From contig CAZTEU010000001.1 in assembly GCA_964612105.1 (NCBI GenBank), forward strand, positions 4,047-68,046: a stretch of DNA of 64,000 bases. Direction: 5' to 3'. The notes beneath the pieces were generated by a model that did not search any database, had not been told where the DNA came from, and saw only the letters and a list, made by a program, of their open reading frames with translations. Origin of the DNA: an uncultured Gammaproteobacteria bacterium. GTDB lineage: Bacteria; Patescibacteriota; Patescibacteriia; Magasanikbacterales; UBA922. This document shows, one piece after another, positions 1,082 to 49,588 of this stretch (position 1 is the stretch's first letter; every line of letters starts with the position of its first letter). The translations under genes and the position numbers were made by a program.

Positions 1082-2527
1082 ATGTTGGAGGACATATTAA
1101 AATCAAAAAGCAAAAGATTCATAGTCTTTTGTTTTTGTTTTCTTTTGGGAGTTGCAATTGCCTCTCTTTTAGAAATTACAAATCGTACATATATCCTAAT
1201 ATGTTCTTTTATTTTTGTAACATTATTAATTGCATATTGGGATAATAAAAGAAAAATGTTTTTTGTTATTTGTCTGTTATTATTATTTCTAGGCATGTCT
1301 CGTTATACTATTTCTTTTCCAGAAAAGAGAATAAGGGAAACAAAAAAAGAGGTTGTTGGATATATTTCTGCAGAGCCAGATGTTCGTATGGATGGTGTGC
1401 GGTACATTGTTATGACAGAAGATATTGGGCGTGTTTATGTAAAATCCTTTTTATATCCAAGATACAATTATGGAGATACGTTAAAACTAAAATGCAATAT
1501 ACAAATACCAGAGCAGATAGAGGATTTTCGTTATGATATGTACCTAGCGCGTTATAAAGTGTTTGCAATTTGTGGAAATGGATTTATTACGGATATTGGA
1601 GAGATAGATGGGTCATTTATTTTAAGAAATATTTATTTGTTTAAGAATATAATAGCAAAGAAGATTAACTTGCTTTGGCACGAACCACACGCAAGTTTTA
1701 TGGCTGGACTTTTATACGGCTATCGTGGGGGATTGGGGAGTCTCAATGAATTATTTAGTAGAACAGGTGTTACACACATTGTGGCTATCTCTGGATATAA
1801 CATAACAATTATTTCTACGATCCTATCTAGCATATTAGTCCAATTATCTATTCCAAGAAAAAAAGCTTTTTATTTTATAGTTTCTGGGATTACTGTTTTT
1901 GTTATCTTTGCTGGACTAAGTGCATCTGTAGTAAGGGCAGGTGTAATGGGAATTGTTGTTCTAATGGCAAGGCAGTCAGGTAGATCTTCACGTGTAGGAA
2001 ATGTTCTTGTCCTTACTGCTGTAATTATGACAGTACAAAACCCATTAATACTAATGTGGGATGCTGGTTTCCAACTCTCTTTCATTTCTACTTTAGGTCT
2101 GGTGTATGTAAGCCCTTTGTTTTCTACTTCTTTTAAGAAGATTCCAGAGACTCTTGGGCTTCGTGAGTCTATAGAAGCTACGCTTTCCGCAACCATTGCA
2201 ACACTTCCACTTATACTTTTTCAGTTTAAAAGACTTTCTGTTGTGGCTGTAATAGTAAATGTTCTTATATTATGGATAATCCCACTTCTTATGTTGCTTG
2301 GATTTCTAGCTGTTGTAATGAGCTTCATTTTTATTCCACTTGCAAATATTATTGCATGGCTTGCTTGGGTTGGATTAAGTTATATTATTTTTATTGTGAA
2401 GTGGTTTGCCGGCCTTAGTTTTGCTGCGGTGGATATACAGATTCCGTGGTGGGGGATGGTAGTTTCTTATCTATTAATTATTTATATGTGCAAAAGACCA
2501 AACAAAAAAACACCTTTCGGTGTCTAG
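1082..2527 (+). CDS. comEC: ComEC/Rec2 competence channel, N-terminal membrane part (DUF4131 plus competence domain)
   Basis: Polytopic membrane protein with the ComEC N-terminal architecture. A strong SD (GGAGGGGG) lies 4 nt upstream of the ATG. It ends in a TAG that is followed by a GC-rich insert. Confidence 0.75.
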   Translation: MLEDILKSKSKRFIVFCFCFLLGVAIASLLEITNRTYILICSFIFVTLLIAYWDNKRKMFFVICLLLLFLGMSRYTISFPEKRIRETKKEVVGYISAEPDVRMDGVRYIVMTEDIGRVYVKSFLYPRYNYGDTLKLKCNIQIPEQIEDFRYDMYLARYKVFAICGNGFITDIGEIDGSFILRNIYLFKNIIAKKINLLWHEPHASFMAGLLYGYRGGLGSLNELFSRTGVTHIVAISGYNITIISTILSSILVQLSIPRKKAFYFIVSGITVFVIFAGLSASVVRAGVMGIVVLMARQSGRSSRVGNVLVLTAVIMTVQNPLILMWDAGFQLSFISTLGLVYVSPLFSTSFKKIPETLGLRESIEATLSATIATLPLILFQFKRLSVVAVIVNVLILWIIPLLMLLGFLAVVMSFIFIPLANIIAWLAWVGLSYIIFIVKWFAGLSFAAVDIQIPWWGMVVSYLLIIYMCKRPNKKTPFGV

Positions 2528-2854
2528 TTAATTATTTAGTTTTGACTCACCGGAGACCAACCTAGACGCGCGTTTGCGTTTTGGTTGGTCTCCGGTTCGT
2601 CAGAGTCTCCTTTCGTTGCGTGACAACTAGCTAGTGTCAGGGGCATAGCGGAGGTACATGATGTACTTTTGATGTCGTTACCGACTCTGGTGTGATAGCT
2701 CTACCCTACGGGAGGGTAAGAGTTATGTGCGCCAGGGGGTCACGCGACCCTTCATGCTGTTCTCCAGGTGTAGCATGGTTTGTGCACGCGGATGTGCTAT
2801 AGGCAAGCTTGGCTGGGAAAGTATAGCACAAAATAGTCGCTATGTCAAGGTCTT
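2528..2854 (+). ncRNA. GC-rich highly structured noncoding element (candidate ribozyme, intron or sRNA) between the two comEC halves
   Basis: 327 nt at roughly 55% GC against about 35% in the flanks. A 14-bp perfect stem CCGGAGACCAACC...GGTTGGTCTCCGG with a 20-nt loop. A long-range CAGAGTC/GACTCTG pairing. The GTACATgATGTAC and GGGTCacgcGACCC hairpins. An 8-bp GTGCTATA/TATAGCAC stem. No ORF. Confidence 0.4.
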
Positions 2855-3739
2855 ATGAGTGATAAAATAGAAAAAATAGCTTATTTTAGCCTAATTCTAC
2901 TAATTGTGGTTTTGGTCCTAATTTGGTTTATAAGGGAAAAACAGCCTGTGGATAACTCAAATATGCTAAAAATCACTTTTTTGGATATTGGACAGGGTGA
3001 TGCTACATTTATTGAATTTCCTAGCGGTGAACAGATGTTAATTGACTGTGCGATAGACGCTGTGGTTGTGGAAGCACTTGGTCGAACTATGGATTTTTAT
3101 GATAGGACAATTGATTATCTTGTTGTAACGCATCCAGACTTAGATCACTACGGTGGGTGTGCAGATGTTCTATATCGTTTTAATATTAAACATATTATTT
3201 ATAATGGTTTTCAGAAACCAAATAGTGGAGTGTGGAATGGATTTATGGATGCAGTAGAAAAAGAAATAGACCAGGGTGCCGAATATATAATTGCAGATAA
3301 TGTTTTTGATTTGAAAGTTGATGATGTGTACATTTCCTATTTGTTTCCAGACAGGCCTGTAGATGTGGAGGATACAAATAACAATACCTCAATTGTAATG
3401 CGTATAAGTTATGGCGAGCAGGATGTGTTATTAACTGCTGATGCTGAAAAAGAGTTAGAACAATATCTTGTCGATGTCTATGATAATGAGCTGGATGTCG
3501 AAATATTAAAAGTTGGACACCATGGCTCATTAACATCTAGTATTTTAGAATTCCTGGGAGTTACATCGCCAAAGGATGCGATAATATCTTCTGGTGAAGA
3601 AAATAATTTTGGACATCCATCTGCTCGTATTATTAAGAGAATTGAACGTAAAGGTGTAAACATTTGGCGAACAGACCAACAAGGTGATATAATAGCTGAG
3701 ATTTATCCACAATTATATACAATCAACTCAAGTAAATAA
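2855..3739 (+). CDS. comEC: ComEC C-terminal part: transmembrane helix plus metallo-beta-lactamase domain
   Basis: ITFLDIGQGDA and VVTHPDLDHYGG MBL motifs, as found in the ComEC C-terminal domain. Same reading frame as 1082..2527. Confidence 0.8.
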   Translation: MSDKIEKIAYFSLILLIVVLVLIWFIREKQPVDNSNMLKITFLDIGQGDATFIEFPSGEQMLIDCAIDAVVVEALGRTMDFYDRTIDYLVVTHPDLDHYGGCADVLYRFNIKHIIYNGFQKPNSGVWNGFMDAVEKEIDQGAEYIIADNVFDLKVDDVYISYLFPDRPVDVEDTNNNTSIVMRISYGEQDVLLTADAEKELEQYLVDVYDNELDVEILKVGHHGSLTSSILEFLGVTSPKDAIISSGEENNFGHPSARIIKRIERKGVNIWRTDQQGDIIAEIYPQLYTINSSK

Positions 3740-10591: not shown

Positions 10592-10622
10592 AAAAAGCCC
10601 CGAGAAATCGGGGCTTTTTTAA
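10592..10622. terminator. Bidirectional intrinsic terminator between convergent genes
   Basis: AAAAAGCCCCGAgaaaTCGGGGCTTTTTT. Confidence 0.6.
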
Positions 10623-17969: not shown

Positions 17970-19139
17970 TTAGTATAGGGCTATCCAGATACCCAGTAAA
18001 ACTGCACCTGCGTGGATAATCCAAAAACGCATAACGGTTTTTTCTTCACTCCATCCACGAAGTTCAAAATGGTGGTGAATTGGAGCCATCTTAAATATTC
18101 TTCTTCCTAACAGATACCTACCAGCAAGTTGTATGATTACAGACAATAGCTCTACGTAGAAAATAAAACCAAGGAGGGGTAATAGTAACATCTTGTTTAT
18201 AACAATTGCATTTATTGCTAAAAGAGCTCCTAAACCAAGAGAACCAACATCTCCCATCTGGAAACGTGCAGGTTTTACATTAAAATATGTGTAAGTAAGC
18301 AACGCACCTGCTGTAGTAGAGTTTAGTACGGCTAGTTCCTGATAACCAAACAACCAACTAAGGAGAGTAAGTGCAGAGAAGGTTGTTATAAGAGCTCCAC
18401 CTGCAAGTCCATCCATACCGTCTGCAACGTTAACAGCATTTGCAGTAAACATAACAAACAGGATAATGAGAGGAATAATCCACCACCCTATATTTACAAA
18501 TCCATCGAAAGGAATATATATCTCACGCCAATGCTCTCCCAGCTTAAAATACACCCACCAAGCTGTAATAGCTCCGGCAACAAACTGCAATAATAGTTTT
18601 TCGTGCACATGTACTCCTTTTCCTGGGTGGGAACCCAACCAAAGAGATGTGCGCTTAAAGACAGACCATGGGAAGGTTATAACAAGCCAAACTCTCTGTT
18701 TCCAGTCCTTATGTACTTTAATTAGTTTAATTACCTGAGATACTTTCCTGTTTCTTCGTCTGTGACCGTAAATATGCAATATATCATCTAATCCTCCCAA
18801 GAGTGATGCTAACAGCATTACCCCGATAGGTACCCATGTAAAACTACGATCCCAATTGAATAGATATGTAATAACTGTCACAGTAACAATAACTAGAAGA
18901 CCTCCCATTATTGGAATTCCATGCTTATGAGAGCGTCCTTTTATAGATAGTGTGGGGTCAAACTCACTTCTACGTGTTATTTTATACCTATATAATATTT
19001 TGATAAGAAGAGGAGCCCACACGAAGGCAACAACACACGAAACAAGACCATATGTAATGGTCGTTAGAAGTGTATCTATTTGTGGGAGGAATTGCTCCAT
19101 AAACAGAGAGAATATAGCAGAAATTGGCGAAAAAAGCAA
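17970..19139 (-). CDS. mraY: Phospho-N-acetylmuramoyl-pentapeptide transferase
   Basis: NAVNVADGMDGLAGG and the MraY-specific PIHHHFE motif. Confidence 0.85.
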   Translation of the reverse strand: MLFSPISAIFSLFMEQFLPQIDTLLTTITYGLVSCVVAFVWAPLLIKILYRYKITRRSEFDPTLSIKGRSHKHGIPIMGGLLVIVTVTVITYLFNWDRSFTWVPIGVMLLASLLGGLDDILHIYGHRRRNRKVSQVIKLIKVHKDWKQRVWLVITFPWSVFKRTSLWLGSHPGKGVHVHEKLLLQFVAGAITAWWVYFKLGEHWREIYIPFDGFVNIGWWIIPLIILFVMFTANAVNVADGMDGLAGGALITTFSALTLLSWLFGYQELAVLNSTTAGALLTYTYFNVKPARFQMGDVGSLGLGALLAINAIVINKMLLLPLLGFIFYVELLSVIIQLAGRYLLGRRIFKMAPIHHHFELRGWSEEKTVMRFWIIHAGAVLLGIWIALY

Positions 19140-19165
19140 GAAATGTGGAAATATTTGTTACTTAC

Positions 19166-19194
19166 AGAAAATCGCTTGACTTTTGTATTTTAAT
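19166..19194 (+). promoter_or_regulatory. Sigma70-like promoter upstream of the GC-rich orphan gene
   Basis: TTGACT, a 17-nt spacer, TATAAT, all in AT-rich sequence. Confidence 0.45.
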
Positions 19195-19326
19195 AGTATA
19201 TAATCCCGCTCGTTCAAATAGGGGGGTGAACACTCGCCCTTTTCATATGCCTTAGTCCTGTAGAAGACAGGGCAAAGGCTTCACCCAGCACTCCACAAAG
19301 TGCTTTGACTAGAGGAAAAATACAGG

Positions 19327-20283
19327 ATGACTACCACCCAGCAAAGGTTTGAGTTCGGAAATGGAATTCAAGCAGACGTGCTCGCAAACGCACTCAGAGG
19401 CTCATCAGCGATGCTACTCGCAAGAAGCGGGGACACTATCGGAGCGCATGCAATCCATCGTCCAGACGGAGCAGGTCTGCAAGACCCGCCGTCGGACATC
19501 GAAGACTCCGTGCTCTTCTCCACCGGCCTGAGGTTCGTCCCGGGAGGAATCTCCCTCATCGGCTTCACGCCAACTGGCACAAACGGATTCGAAGCATGTC
19601 TCGACGCATTCGACGGCGAGCTCATCCGTCAGTTCGGGGACACGGAGGACACCATCCTCCAGCACTTCTTCACGGCGCCCACAAGGCTGATCACACGACG
19701 ACAGATTCGCGCCTATGCCACGGTTGATGGTAGCCGGAAGCAGATCTTCAAGAACGAGCGCATCACCTGTGGTGATATCGAGCAACAAGATGATGATCTG
19801 AATGCCGCATGCATCGCAATCAGCGACGGACGCAGTCGTCACCGCCTCCTGAAGGTCAATCCCATTACGGGACGAACCATCGAGGCTGCCGGCTTCGCCA
19901 GTGCGATCAAGCACGTCAAGATCAGCCCGAACGGGTTCGTCTACGTGACGCTCACAGACGGAACACTGCGAATCTGCGGTTTCTACCGCAATCGCGTTGA
20001 TTTCAACCGAGTCGGCTCGATTCACCACGTGCGCAAGGTCGTGTTGCTCAAGGGACAGCAACTCGCCATTCTGGGCTCTGGTCGCCATCTCCTCCGAATC
20101 CTGAGCTACGGCTCTCACATCAAGAGGATCTCACTCGAAATCCCGGGATGCATGTCTGAGGAAAACACTGTGGCTCTCGGCTTCAGCGGATGTCATCCGG
20201 TCATCGTCGATCGGTCCACCGGTGTGACAGCGTTCCTCCCGCCGATCTCGGACATCGTTCCTCTCAACTGTCATTCGAACTGA
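19327..20283 (+). CDS. Orphan 318-aa protein encoded in a GC-rich (about 57%) island; no recognisable domain
   Basis: A long ORF whose composition contrasts sharply with the flanks. The antisense ORF 19414..20118 is a GC artefact. No signal peptide. Confidence 0.5.
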   Translation: MTTTQQRFEFGNGIQADVLANALRGSSAMLLARSGDTIGAHAIHRPDGAGLQDPPSDIEDSVLFSTGLRFVPGGISLIGFTPTGTNGFEACLDAFDGELIRQFGDTEDTILQHFFTAPTRLITRRQIRAYATVDGSRKQIFKNERITCGDIEQQDDDLNAACIAISDGRSRHRLLKVNPITGRTIEAAGFASAIKHVKISPNGFVYVTLTDGTLRICGFYRNRVDFNRVGSIHHVRKVVLLKGQQLAILGSGRHLLRILSYGSHIKRISLEIPGCMSEENTVALGFSGCHPVIVDRSTGVTAFLPPISDIVPLNCHSN

Positions 20284-20501
20284 CCCTCGCTGGGTGGCCT
20301 GGCACCCCCGTCCTCGGTTTTGTGGCCTTGGATGGGGGTGCTGGGCGTATCTCTTAAACATACCAATATCCGATTTTATCGGATGAGGTTGTCTAGTGAT
20401 ACACCGGCTGTACCAAAGTACAGCCAGAATTCTGGATATATAACTATGTTGTATAACCAGAATTACCCTGTACATACAGTGTACAGGGTAATTATAACCA
20501 C

Positions 20502-20530
20502 TTGACAATTTGCTCCTTTATGATTATAAT
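20502..20530 (+). promoter_or_regulatory. Consensus sigma70 promoter for rpmG
   Basis: TTGACA, a 17-nt spacer, TATAAT. Confidence 0.55.
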
Positions 20531-20580
20531 GATGGAGCTTTTGAAATGAATATACTATGTCACAAGACAACATGATAAAA

Positions 20581-21550: not shown

Positions 21551-21737
21551 ATTATTTGCATTATAGCAGGGATTTTACTCCGTGCAAGTACTAAAATGCA
21601 AAAAAGTAAACGATTTGTTTACTTTTATGTGTTTTTTGATGAGTCTATTAGACTGATTTTTGTTCCTAATACAAAATAATTGTGTATCTGCGCACAAGCC
21701 ATGTTGGTTTGTGACGACAGGTCGCCCCAAGGAGGGG

Positions 21738-22292
21738 ATGATGTTTGGGAAAAAAGTGTTTGTTCTGATGGTCGCATCTGCGCTGTTCGTTGGCTGTATG
21801 GCCGAGACCGAGGAAGATCTTCCTACCACGAAGCAGATTCAGGGCTCTGTCGCATACCAAGGTGTCGCGGTGGCAGGAGCTGAGGTGGTCGCGACAACCG
21901 GAGATGAGCCGGATTCGCCAAGCTTCGCAAGTGCATCGGATGATCTGGGCCACTTCTCGCTGGAGATGCCGAAAGATCTTCCGATCTGCAAAGTGCAGGC
22001 CGCTGTCGAACTCGATGGCAAGTTGCTTATTGGTGAAGCTCTGGATCCTGGCGAGTTGGACCCAATCGAGCTGAGGGAATTCACTGAGGAAGAGGCACAA
22101 GAAGCCCAGAAATCCTTCGATCTGGAGGTGGAAGGAGTCAGTACCTTTGTTGGGTACAAAGGGTGGGGTTGTGCGTGTCACAAGCAAGGCAAGTACTTCG
22201 GGAAGCTCTGCTGTGGCTACTACGAACTGAAAAAGCCTCAGAACGCAACCTTCTGCTCCATCCCACTACCGTTTGTCTGCTACTGGAAGTAG
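21738..22292 (+). CDS. GC-rich island lipoprotein with a Cys-rich C-terminus
   Basis: AAGGAGG SD, then MMFGKKVFVLMVASALFVGC (a lipobox). The C-terminal GWGCACHKQGKYFGKLCCGYYELKKPQNATFCSIPLPFVCYWK carries 8 Cys. I take the start at 21738, not the ORF-track 21660. Confidence 0.5.
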   Translation: MMFGKKVFVLMVASALFVGCMAETEEDLPTTKQIQGSVAYQGVAVAGAEVVATTGDEPDSPSFASASDDLGHFSLEMPKDLPICKVQAAVELDGKLLIGEALDPGELDPIELREFTEEEAQEAQKSFDLEVEGVSTFVGYKGWGCACHKQGKYFGKLCCGYYELKKPQNATFCSIPLPFVCYWK

Positions 22293-22309
22293 CATTCCAC
22301 TCTTTGATA

Positions 22310-22347
22310 GGGAGGGGTAGTAAAAACTACCCCTCCTTTCTTCTTTT
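22310..22347 (+). terminator. Intrinsic terminator after the lipoprotein gene
   Basis: GGGAGGGGTAGtaaaaaCTACCCCTCC then TTTCTTCTTTT. Confidence 0.6.
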
Positions 22348-22349
22348 AC

Positions 22350-22500
22350 TAACATAGCAAGCGCAGACCTACGTCGGATGAACCTATGTCTACAAAGGGA
22401 TACCTGTTCGGTAAGAGAACACAACGACCTCAAGGGAGTCGGTCCGCTTTCGAGCGGATTGACTCCTGGTCGTCGATTCACACACTACACGTGTGTTTTT
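22350..22500 (+). ncRNA. Candidate small structured RNA (GC-rich, nested stems, UUCG tetraloop, own terminator)
   Basis: CGACC..GGGAGTC[TCCGCTttcgAGCGGA]GACTCC.GGTCG nested helices. Ends with a CACACactacacGTGTG hairpin and T7. Confidence 0.3.
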
Positions 22501-22514
22501 TTATTAAGTAGTTT

Positions 22515-27134: not shown

Positions 27135-27136
27135 GG

Positions 27137-27165
27137 TTGACAAAAACCACTATTTGTTCTACAAT
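27137..27165 (+). promoter_or_regulatory. Sigma70-like promoter for metK
   Basis: TTGACA, a 17-nt spacer, TACAAT. Confidence 0.5.
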
Positions 27166-27182
27166 CAGTACAAATTAATTAA

Positions 27183-27336
27183 GTTCTCAGATGGTGTTCG
27201 TTGTTGGTTGGTCCTATACAGACTAGTAGGCATTTGCCTGTCTAATCCGCATTACTGCTCAACAACGTCCGACCCTGATCATTCAGGGCGTCTATCTTCG
27301 AGAACATCCCGTATTTTGGGATGATTTTTATTCTCT
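27183..27336 (+). promoter_or_regulatory. Structured metK leader: closing stem GTTCTC/GAGAAC, then an intrinsic terminator (riboswitch-like; possibly SAM-responsive, class undetermined)
   Basis: P1-like stem at 27183-27188 / 27300-27305 encloses about 110 nt with internal CGTTGTTGG/CTCAACAACG pairing. The ATCCCgtatttTGGGAT hairpin plus a T-tract lies immediately 5' of the metK ATG. Confidence 0.35.
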
Positions 27337-28545: not shown

Positions 28546-28556
28546 AAAACAATTAA

Positions 28557-28584
28557 AAAATCCCGATTTCTCGGGATTTTTTAA
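28557..28584. terminator. Bidirectional terminator after metK
   Basis: AAAAAATCCCGAtttcTCGGGATTTTTT. Confidence 0.65.
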
Positions 28585-28703
28585 TTTCTTCTTCTGCAAA
28601 TACATTTGCAAGAAAAGGAACGTATGCACATGGTGTACGTACGCCCCGCCCCCTCCGTTGGAGACTCGTCGTCCATGTGCATGCTGGTCACCCCCCTTTG
28701 ATG

Positions 28704-29231
28704 TCAGCGGTTGTCCGAGATGGTGTCCATCCACTCGATGTTCTTCGCTTTCGGCTTGATTGCTGGGTTCAGGCGAACCCGTAGCGTCTTCTTGTCGACC
28801 TTAGGAACCATCTGGCTGGTACGCTTGGTCTCGGGCTCCGCACATCTCTCAACCTGGGCAGGTGTCGGCTTCCTCCTCTCCCCAGTTTTGATGTTTCTTC
28901 TGTGCTGAAGGTCGAGCTGTTCTCGTTGTCTTCTTCTCTCGATTCTCCACACTAGGATTCCCAAGAGAAATACCACTAGAACGCCACCAAGCGTCATCAG
29001 GAAGAAATGGCTCTTGGTCTGCCCAAGTCTTCGCCAAATCCCACTGGATCCACCAAAGGCCAATGCCCAGTCACTGTAACCGAGCATCAGGAAGAAACAG
29101 ACTGTGACAATCAAGTCACGGATCCACTCCATTGTTCTCTGTGTCATTGCGCCCTCCTGCGCTGACCGCTGTACGGTCGGGTTTGTGTCCTTAGGACGCG
29201 TTTTTATATCATAAGTATGCCAATTTGTCAA
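28704..29231 (-). CDS. Small 2-TM membrane protein encoded in a GC-rich island; the start is probably an internal Met
   Basis: GC-rich ORF. Two hydrophobic helices. Arg-rich C-terminus. Confidence 0.4.
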   Translation of the reverse strand: MTNWHTYDIKTRPKDTNPTVQRSAQEGAMTQRTMEWIRDLIVTVCFFLMLGYSDWALAFGGSSGIWRRLGQTKSHFFLMTLGGVLVVFLLGILVWRIERRRQREQLDLQHRRNIKTGERRKPTPAQVERCAEPETKRTSQMVPKVDKKTLRVRLNPAIKPKAKNIEWMDTISDNR

Positions 29232-32614: not shown

Positions 32615-32640
32615 ATCCAGACCTACGTCTGGATTTTTGA
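32614..32640 (+). terminator. Terminator after cca
   Basis: AAATCCAGACctacgGTCTGGATTTTT. Confidence 0.6.
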
Positions 32641-32781
32641 TACAAAAAAATGGCTATTGCCATAACGTTTATTTTATTGAACCACGAGCCGGGACCATAC
32701 TACGCATTCGCAGTGATGATCCCGGCTCGGGTAACAGGCGCCAGATACCCCGCAGGTATCCTTGTGGTCGCCGGTCAGCGG

Positions 32782-32855
32782 TCGGGTGGGCTGGATTTGA
32801 ACCAGCGACCTTGAGCTTTGTAGGCTCACACTCTACCTGACTGAGCTACCCCCCG
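32782..32855 (-). tRNA. tRNA whose apparent anticodon is ACA (it would read Cys UGU); identity needs checking
   Basis: Minus-strand read CGGGGGGTAGCTCAGTCAGGTAGAGTGTGAGCCTACAAAGCTCAAGGTCGCTGGTTCAAATCCAGCCCACCCGA. Anticodon stem TGAGC/GCTCA, loop CTACAAA. T-arm GCTGGTTCAAATCCAGC. Confidence 0.7.
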
Positions 32856-32882
32856 AAAAAAGAACAAAGAACAATTAATCAA

Positions 32883-33063
32883 GCGGAACCCCCCAACCAG
32901 TGCGTCATCCGACTGTCCGCATGGAGGAGGGGTTCCGCTGTGCCAGCGGTGTTTTGCAAGCTACGGACTCCCGCAACCAGCCCTCAGGTGACTACCATGT
33001 GAGGCTACCGCTGGAACGAAGTGGTGGAGGGATTAGAACCCTTGTGCTTCGACGACTCACCAC
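32883..33063 (-). other. GC-rich structured flank of the tRNA: a 10-bp inverted repeat, and a tRNA-like minihelix with an acceptor-like stem and T-arm-like hairpin
   Basis: GCGGAACCCC...36 nt...GGGGTTCCGC at 32883-32938. GTGGTGG[AGGGattagaaCCCT]...TCACCAC at 33021-33063. On the minus strand the hairpin loop reads TTCTAAT, which is T-loop-like. Confidence 0.3.
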
Positions 33064-33179
33064 GGTACGAAGATTACGAAAATCATTTTACATTATGAAT
33101 ATAAAACTGTCAAACAGTATTTATTAACATATACACAATACATTGCTTTTGTGCGTAAAATCTAGTACAATATGCATAT

Positions 33180-40605: not shown

Positions 40606-40652
40606 ACAATAATTATTGGATTATCCACAGATGATACAGAATTTTAGCAGTT

Positions 40653-40680
40653 AAATGAGTGCAACTTCACTCATTTTTTG
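40653..40680 (+). terminator. Terminator after dnaJ
   Basis: AAATGAGTGcaacttCACTCATTTTTT. Confidence 0.55.
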
Positions 40681-40689
40681 ATAATATAA

Positions 40690-41040
40690 ATACAACTTCA
40701 ACCCATAACCGGAGACCTACTCCATGCCACCAGGACTAGTAAGAGACTACTCGTTCAGACCAACAGCAATGCACAGGAAGTGCATGATGCAGGGATGTCG
40801 AGGATCTCGAGGGGGGTGTGTGCATTGCAGACACACTGGCTTCAAGCTTTCAAAGTCGGAGATTCGAGAGATCGATAATTCCGAACGGAGAAGCAGAAGG
40901 CGGCGTCGAATGCGCTAGACCCATGGTTCCAGGCAAAAACAACTAGTGGGGTTGAAGATGCAAAAGGACATTGTTTCGACCCCGACCTTTTACTTTGATT
41001 ACTCAATGTAAAAGTTAGGGGATAGGTCGAAGCAAACATA
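40690..41040. other. About 350-nt noncoding region with moderately elevated GC and several hairpins; candidate ncRNA
   Basis: No convincing ORF; the 64-aa ORF 40724..40918 is Arg-rich and low-complexity. GTGTGTGcattgcagaCACACT and TCGAGgatcTCGA stems. Ends at the AAAGAACCCGGttGGGTTCTTTTTTT terminator (41041..41066). Confidence 0.25.
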
Positions 41041-41064
41041 AAAGAACCCGGTTGGGTTCTTTTT

Positions 41065-48899: not shown

Positions 48900-49071
48900 A
48901 ACAAAATTTATTTGTATTAATTATACCATATTATAATAAATAACATTAACTGGATAAAATAACTATTATTTAACTTTGTCCACGACAAGCTATGTGCTAT
49001 CCTTGTAGTAGGAAACGAACAGCTCTCATTAAGGATATGGGGGTGATACACAACCAAAACAGGGGGAACCG

Positions 49072-49422
49072 ATGGGACATAAAAAACCTGAGTCAGACTT
49101 CGACCTTCATTTTGTAACAGCCTCTCCATTTCAAAAGTGGCTGGACAAGATAAACCCAGAAACTGCATTGTTGTTGGCAACCTTTTGGAACTGTATGATG
49201 GTAGTCATCTTATCTGCACCTCTCATCTGGGTAACCACTGACATGGATATGAGCTCTTCCATCGTATACGTTGCGGAGTATTGGTCTGAGTTTGCCCTCT
49301 TTATGATTGCGGCATTGGCACAACTCGCTATTCTCCTCATAGCAATGATTTCGTCTGTTCTGGCCTTCTCTGGACTTCTTTATCTGCTCGATAGGGTGTG
49401 CATGCGCTGTTCCAAATCCTGA
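49072..49422 (+). CDS. Small 3-TM membrane protein in a GC-elevated islet
   Basis: ORF in a region of about 48% GC, followed by a terminator near 49505..49540. Confidence 0.3.
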   Translation: MGHKKPESDFDLHFVTASPFQKWLDKINPETALLLATFWNCMMVVILSAPLIWVTTDMDMSSSIVYVAEYWSEFALFMIAALAQLAILLIAMISSVLAFSGLLYLLDRVCMRCSKS

Positions 49423-49588
49423 GTCCTCTCCGACCTACGGTCGTTGTACGCCGAACTGATTCGCTTCATGCGACAGCCAAGCGTCATGCGTGGGTCGGAA
49501 CAGTTCAAAAAAACACCAACAATGGTGTTTTTTTGTTTTATGCTCGTATTTACTTGATTTTTTAGCCAAATTTGTTACTATTAGTACT

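Follow-up and report, generated by a model that had tools for sequence, protein, structure and literature searches.

A 64,000-nucleotide (nt) stretch of contig CAZTEU010000001.1 (assembly GCA_964612105.1; the window in what follows) belongs to a Patescibacterium near Ca. Magasanikbacteria and contains, between the genes mraY and rpmG, a GC-rich segment of 1.1 kb in an otherwise AT-rich genome. We propose that this segment, island A, is probably a recently acquired, self-contained and foreign protein-coding cassette, laid out much like a phage moron, whose product of 318 amino acids (aa) is a possible WD40-like scaffold.

Composition, coding capacity and integrity of island A

In a 200-nt sliding profile the GC content rises from 0.36-0.39 to 0.54-0.60 at ~19200-20400 and then falls to 0.31-0.34. 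Cumulative GC sets the change points at 19204 and 20347, so that both edges are sharp, in agreement with the initial annotation, which had described a GC-rich island in an AT-rich genome with abrupt shifts at about 19200 and 20340. The open reading frame (ORF) reported there for the 318-aa protein was recovered unchanged (Table 1). Its GC content of 0.571 compares with a window mean of 0.376 and with 0.33-0.42 in nine native genes, and the excess is largest at third codon positions, where GC3 amounts to 0.67 as opposed to 0.23-0.31 in native genes. The codon-usage comparison with native genes that had been suggested likewise gives a foreign-like picture: the relative synonymous codon usage of the ORF is anticorrelated with that of the native genes (r=-0.47, compared with 0.73-0.94 for native genes against their own pool), and CTC accounts for 18 of its 28 leucine codons, whereas native genes prefer TTA, CTT and CTA. 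Because GC3 is reversed, codon preferences are inverted and the edges are sharp, we argue for a recent horizontal acquisition that has not been ameliorated.

The ORF bears the imprint of coding sequence. A test of base composition by codon position is highly significant (p=2.7e-13), also in each third of the ORF taken separately, and native genes give comparable values, whereas no periodicity (p>0.1) is seen in the leader, in the 3′ flank or in two GC-rich, non-coding units of the window (D and E). The stop-free run of 324 codons exceeds the maximum of 277 obtained in 2000 shuffles of island A.

In a natural population, island A is stably integrated. Seventeen contigs encode the exact 318-aa product, and the products of the flanking genes, MraY and UDG, were each found on 24 or more contigs that derive from at least 10 samples, the longest contig measuring 372 kb. 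Over both junctions, the retrieved loci match the window at 99.8-100% identity; within the island they differ solely by the substitutions 19326 G>C and 20326 C>A, neither of which lies in the ORF. As none of the contigs recovered, which come from at least 10 samples, lacks the island, it appears fixed. An exact-match look-up of L33 for other strains returned the same population only.

Signals for transcription and translation

A sigma-70-type promoter precedes the ORF, and its -10 box ends at the change point 19204; from its position, transcription would start at ~19211. Sites that match the consensus at 11 or more of 12 positions occur 11 times in the window, compared with 3.5 expected from block shuffles, and those that abut GC-rich segments on the correct strand belong to island A, island C, island D, a unit with its promoter at 2848-2820, and tRNA-Val. 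The initial annotation had spoken of an AT-rich, native-looking promoter. Such a promoter is indeed present, but it can be assigned neither to the host nor to a donor, because the sigma-70 consensus is AT-rich in any genome and because only ~65 nt separate mraY from the composition boundary.

The hairpins predicted for the 5′ leader span 19220-19243, 19249-19279 and 19281-19308. Segment 19210-19326 folds with a minimum free energy (MFE) of -41.2, compared with -30.8 for shuffles (z -3.05), and matches no Rfam family. The Shine-Dalgarno (SD)-like motif GAGGA at 19312-19316 lies 10 nt before the ATG of the ORF. At -20 to -4, a motif of this kind was found in just 2 of 49 native ORFs (chance level ~8%), while in seven native ORFs, including udg, uppP, the DUF6938 gene and mraY, a TATAAT-like box precedes the ATG by 4-14 nt. 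These start regions suggest that leaderless mRNAs are widespread in the host. Since native ORFs mostly lack SD motifs, the translation signals of the island genes are atypical for this genome; a comEC-like ORF at 1082, native in composition yet endowed with a strong AAGGAGGGGG, is an exception among the SD-poor native genes. The consensus matches of promoter and SD motif suggest that island A may be expressed.

Downstream of the stop codon follows an array of five predicted hairpins, all near-perfect and in direct succession. The first, H1, is terminator-like without a clear U-tract; the others occupy 20347-20402 (H2), 20406-20425 (H3), 20429-20463 (H4) and 20461-20493 (H5). Region 20280-20505 has an MFE of -114.9 as compared with -64.0 for shuffles (z -11.95), and the array itself (20297-20494) reaches a z of about -12 on both strands. 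It is thereby the most extreme intergenic fold on the plus strand of the window, where ordinary intergenic regions range from -3.6 to +1.8. The array was found once in the window, has no Rfam match and stops 8 nt before the rpmG promoter (20502-20530), which matches the consensus at 12 of 12 positions. Judging by its predicted fold, it is a probable terminator/insulator or 3′ untranslated region (UTR) stabiliser. Native terminators are simpler and consist of single A-tract/GC-stem/T-tract hairpins, for example at 10592-10619 and 28551-28586.

Table 1. Coordinates of features in and near island A and of the sister cassettes B and C (positions in the window)
Feature	Position	Strand	Remarks
Sigma-70-type promoter TTGACT-17-TATAAT	19176..19204	+	11/12 consensus match
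5′ leader, ~115 nt	19205..19326	+	three predicted hairpins and SD-like GAGGA
Orphan ORF, 318 aa	19327..20283	+	GC 0.571; GC1/2/3 0.58/0.46/0.67
Antisense ORF, 234 aa	19414..20118	-	codon-antiparallel frame to the sense ORF
Hairpin H1, GC-rich, 17-bp stem	20297..20346	+	14 nt after stop; ends the GC-rich block
Hairpins H2-H5, near-perfect, AT-rich, native-like	20347..20494		predicted by folding
Cassette B	21661..22511	+	SD AAGGAGGGG, 184-aa ORF, 213-nt multi-hairpin 3′ region
Cassette C	28546..29231	-	own promoter, 147-aa ORF, 159-nt multi-hairpin 3′ region

An orphan protein with a WD40-like motif

The 318-aa protein is a true orphan. It has no match in Pfam, NCBIfam, PHROGs or PADLOC (searched to E<=1 in Pfam, NCBIfam and PADLOC), and a word-seeded search among 5.8 billion clusters retrieved the protein itself and nothing else. 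An exhaustive phmmer search of 1.84 billion representatives added two matches to the self-hit, with E values of 7e-5 and 5e-4. The homology searches recommended at the outset thus leave the protein an orphan, with weak repeat-type matches as its sole company. Both matches are giant WD40-repeat proteins (1876 and 1712 aa). All of their matched stretches map to query residues ~173-284, so that the score accumulates over many blades aligned to this one region; we therefore rejected the two giants as homologues, as their significance arises from a single query region aligned to many repeats.

The same region nevertheless carries a blade-like signature. A blade hidden Markov model derived from the WD40 giants matches residues 193-217 (1 of 200 shuffles scored as well), and hhalign places a blade at residues 189-226 with 64% probability and a weak second one at 230-271. 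In a phmmer comparison with the PDB, WDR5 was matched at E ~0.06 or weaker; a further match, to a designer PPR protein, was discarded as compositional. AlphaFold2 (AF2), run without an alignment, returned a confidence (pLDDT) of 35 for the full length and of 43 for residues 147-318, with a C-terminal half consisting mostly of beta-strands and no reliable fold. By eye, the sequence has no membrane segment and, as previously stated, its N-terminus shows no signal peptide. The accompanying statement that no domain is recognisable stands as far as protein families are concerned and needs qualification for the one weak WD40-like blade at residues 189-226.

Compared with the WD40/beta-propeller family (PF00400 and related), residues 189-226 show a GH-like start, 'SPNG' and a 'DGTLRI' motif, residues 230-271 align weakly, and an all-beta structure is predicted for the C-terminal half. 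Typical members differ in having 6-8 profile-recognised blades of ~40 aa, as opposed to the one modest blade seen here, which comes without a Pfam match at E<=1 and without a confident propeller model. We take the protein to be a soluble orphan with a putative WD40-like beta-repeat motif; a length of 318 aa would fit ~7 blades, and a seven-blade propeller is possible.

Genomic neighbourhood

Island A is surrounded by housekeeping genes, namely mpl, an ATE-like gene, mraY, rpmG, tRNA-Trp, udg and metK. Relatives of MraY were sought in species-representative genomes and in metagenomes; the closest are encoded by Ca. Magasanikbacteria and other Patescibacteria metagenome-assembled genomes (62-73% identity), and none exceeds 73%. 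In these relatives the mraY-ate-mpl side is syntenic (loci L007, L008/L090, L087 and L088), and the region upstream of mraY holds murB, an ATP-grasp-like gene and a gene for a conserved 'PYFNN' protein. Because island A together with rpmG-tRNA-Trp replaces these upstream genes, the island lies at a synteny breakpoint. Neither cluster nor exhaustive searches yielded a homologue of the 318-aa protein in any other Patescibacterium, and viral contigs, phage genomes and plasmids gave no match to A at the protein or DNA level (B and C, described below, were partly searched). Of the horizontal source that had been suspected, a high-GC host or phage, the foreign composition is thus borne out; the viral, phage and plasmid searches came back empty and a donor was not found.

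Two further islands of similar layout

Within 10 kb of island A lie two more GC-rich islands, B and C (Table 1). The ORF of island B (21738-22292, GC 0.535) follows a perfect SD motif and encodes a protein that looks lipoprotein-like by eye; its codon periodicity is significant (p=3.8e-6) and its 3′ region strongly folded (z -6.9). Upstream of the island, 21551-21737 is also structured (z -5.8). On the opposite strand, island C has the promoter TTGACA-17-TATAAA at 29231-29203, an ORF at 29147-28704 (GC 0.52) for a protein with membrane segments, a periodicity of p=2.9e-5 and a 3′ region with z -6.1. The proteins of B and C match only themselves in the 5.8 billion clusters. All three islands combine an SD motif, a GC-rich orphan ORF and a multi-hairpin 3′ region, with a consensus promoter in A and C. 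They share no sequence and their codon usage correlates weakly (r 0.14-0.37), so that a single donor is not indicated. As B and C have a similar layout and lie within 10 kb of A, the genome seems to accumulate such units.

Proposed model and alternatives

In the model that we consider probable, the consensus promoter would start a transcript whose structured leader, with its SD-like motif, precedes translation of the 318-codon ORF into a soluble protein, rich in beta structure and with one or more WD40-like blades, possibly a scaffold for protein-protein interactions. The GC-rich hairpin H1 and the four that follow would then stop or stabilise the transcript, and the array would insulate the essential rpmG-tRNA-Trp unit downstream. 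Island A may have been taken up by natural transformation and inserted by illegitimate recombination, a plausible route because comEC-like genes are present in the window (ORFs at 1082-3739). In support of an acquisition, horizontal transfer and genomic islands are documented in Patescibacteria, mostly within the phylum, and such islands make up as much as 13% of genome length; unique recent transfers from outside the phylum were rare or undetected in the same survey (PMC12455944).

Several observations weigh against a recent acquisition of a functional gene. No empty site was recovered, MraY relatives being at most 73% identical and synteny upstream of mraY not being conserved. Integrase and transposase Pfam families are missing within ±10 kb of island A, direct repeats at its borders and terminal inverted repeats stay at chance level, and the 3′ end of tRNA-Trp has no copy elsewhere that could represent a tRNA-derived att repeat. 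Given the size of the databases, the lack of a donor or homologue in any collection is odd for a recent transfer. The ORF shows no polymorphism and hence offers no readout of purifying selection; a missing Pfam WD40 match at E<=1 together with a pLDDT of 35-43 makes the evidence for the fold weak; and gene callers are split between the two strands of the island.

The most serious rival, which we nevertheless consider unlikely, is a neutral foreign passenger whose ORF has remained intact for lack of time to decay and which encodes no functional protein. A wholly un-ameliorated composition, an orphan ORF without a family and with low AF2 confidence, the unreadable selection signal of a monomorphic ORF, and an SD-type signal in a host largely devoid of SD motifs would all suit such a passenger. 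They have to be reconciled with an 11/12 promoter, a folded leader and a complex hairpin array at the 3′ end, with the fixation of the island in every recovered contig from at least 10 samples, and with the expectation that a streamlined genome of the Candidate Phyla Radiation (CPR) purges useless DNA.

A broader proposal, clearly unlikely at present, extends the cassette model to all three islands: A, B and C would form an undescribed class of CPR accessory units that derive from an essentially unsampled pool, for example that of the organism on which the bacterium itself lives or of CPR-specific viruses, integrate without a recombinase and encode host-interaction products. Each cassette would comprise a promoter, an SD-bearing leader, a GC-rich orphan ORF and a multi-hairpin 3′ array; integration would leave no recombinase signatures and might depend on competence-mediated uptake; and the products, a cytoplasmic beta-repeat protein, a lipoprotein and a small membrane protein, might serve symbiosis or host interaction.

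Quite improbable is a native or ancestral gene whose high GC content is kept locally by selection on mRNA or protein or by a mutation/repair bias. It would account for the missing donor and for borders free of mobility signatures, and other GC-rich units of the window (tRNAs, D and E) are indeed native RNA genes behind the same type of promoter. The GC3 value and the inverted codon choice, most evident for leucine, are hard to reconcile with a native origin, as are the sharp edges, the lack of a homologue in other Patescibacteria and an SD motif unlike the start regions of native genes.

It is very improbable that island A is a gene for a long structured non-coding RNA in which the ORF is incidental. 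Among the GC-rich segments behind consensus promoters in this window are indeed tRNA-Val and two structured units, D and E; strong structure is also seen in the leader and the 3′ flank of island A; the strand is disputed among gene callers; and protein homologues are lacking. Inside the ORF, however, RNA folding is ordinary (z -2.3 to +0.9), and Rfam 15, applied to 19100-20560 at the gathering cut-off and at a permissive threshold of E<=5, gave a best E of 0.6, to microRNA models; over the whole window, tRNAs are the only Rfam matches. Ordinary folding and the missing Rfam match argue that island A is not a structured-RNA gene, as do a codon periodicity that units D and E and the UTRs do not share and a stop-free run longer than in any shuffle.

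Even less can be said for the antisense ORF as the real gene (224 or 234 aa, within 19414-20118 on the minus strand), an option that we regard as highly improbable. The same DNA is called either as the 318-aa sense ORF or as the antisense ORF by public pipelines; the latter is called in 11 public contigs, among them JGI and ENA annotations at loci L168, L172-L174 and L176-L178, and public protein collections now contain both products, as orphans without a link to each other. When codons were permuted under a fixed sense protein, 3-5% of permutations produced an antisense run of 234 codons or more (P 0.03-0.05), which puts the observed length in the upper tail of what sense codon usage predicts; a symmetric codon-permutation test, meant to decide between the strands, gave only partial information. 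The frame is exactly codon-antiparallel, and it is open because the sense ORF contains just four TTA/CTA/TCA codons, at positions 26, 27, 30 and 269. The composition of the antisense product is artefact-like (isoelectric point 4.15, D+E 21%, G at 47% of first codon positions). Upstream of the antisense ORF, neither a promoter nor an SD motif was detected, and its product matched no family in Pfam, NCBIfam, PHROGs or PADLOC. The sense ORF reaches 29 and 55 codons past the two ends of the antisense frame and fills the island. In line with the initial annotation, which had called this frame spurious, the antisense ORF is probably a by-product of sense codon usage, and we take the plus strand to be the coding one.

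The chance of an assembly chimera or contaminating fragment, raised earlier and suggested by the abrupt composition change and by the source being a metagenome-assembled genome, is negligible, as the same junctions recur independently in assemblies from ENA (two study prefixes), Logan and JGI, that is, in three pipelines and at least 10 samples, on contigs of up to 372 kb; the segment is integrated, not mis-assembled.

Other GC-rich or structured units in the window

Further structured or GC-rich segments were noted in the window. A non-coding, GC-rich unit of ~290 nt (2515-2848, minus strand), flanked by a comEC-like and an MBL-fold gene, has the promoter TTGACA-17-TATACT (2848-2820), two terminal hairpins and a folding z of -6.8, lacks codon periodicity and any Rfam match even at E<=1, and is a candidate for an unclassified structured RNA. 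Island D (32617-33113, minus strand) starts with a consensus promoter at 33113-33085, which is followed by a putative structured RNA of ~200 nt ending in a U-run (z -3.6), a tRNA, ~140 nt of very pronounced structure (z -10.7) and a terminator. Its tRNA (32780-32855), assigned by ARAGORN to Cys with the unusual anticodon ACA, is the sole Rfam match in island D, which contains no ORF of 90 aa or more. Upstream of metK, 27135-27336 is structured (z -3.7/-5.1). Two long spacers, 40606-41064 and 48900-49588, have a moderately raised GC content, and the latter holds a 116-aa ORF at 49072-49422 with a GC3 of 0.50.

Significance and comparison with known systems

If the proposed model is true, island A represents a clean case in which a streamlined CPR genome has very recently gained a gene from beyond its phylum and not yet ameliorated it, and the repeated layout of promoter, SD motif and hairpin array suggests a route by which foreign genes could become expressible and insulated in such genomes. 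In practical terms, one stretch of DNA has given rise to both 318-aa and likely spurious 224/234-aa orphan entries in protein databases.

Several types of mobile element were considered and set aside. A retron reverse transcriptase (RT), an IS110 bridge-RNA recombinase and a TnpB/omega-RNA element were ruled out, as no RT, DEDD/RuvC or TnpB domain was found in the 318-aa ORF with Pfam, NCBIfam or PADLOC at E<=1. An integron gene cassette was likewise set aside, though no formal attC model was applied: there is no integrase within ±10 kb, the ORF has its own promoter, and islands B and C, which share no sequence with A, lack copies of its hairpins.

Phage morons, described for lambdoid phages, are independent promoter-ORF-terminator units of atypical composition that are inserted between genes. 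Island A resembles them in its single ORF with its own predicted sigma-70-type promoter and hairpin region downstream, in a composition that differs sharply from both neighbours, and in leaving the flanking genes undisrupted. Unlike a moron, it does not reside in a prophage but among mraY, mpl, rpmG, tRNA-Trp, udg and metK; the PHROG, viral-contig and phage-genome searches were negative; and in place of a simple terminator it has five hairpins in a row, with no clear U-tract.

Island A is GC-richer than its host, whereas ORFans of bacteria tend to be AT-richer. With genomic islets and ORFans, including the islands of Patescibacteria (PMC12455944), it shares atypical GC content and codon usage, sharp edges and a lineage-restricted gene; it deviates from islets in comprising one gene only and in having no integrase, tRNA-att site or flanking direct repeats. 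Whereas the transfers reported for Patescibacteria occurred mostly between members of the phylum (PMC12455944), island A is without a donor or homologue. Island A can thus be classed as an ORFan islet of foreign composition whose layout recalls a moron, and as such it falls into a known and common category; less ordinary are the contrast between its SD motif and the apparently leaderless start regions of the host, its array of five hairpins, and a layout that recurs in three islands.

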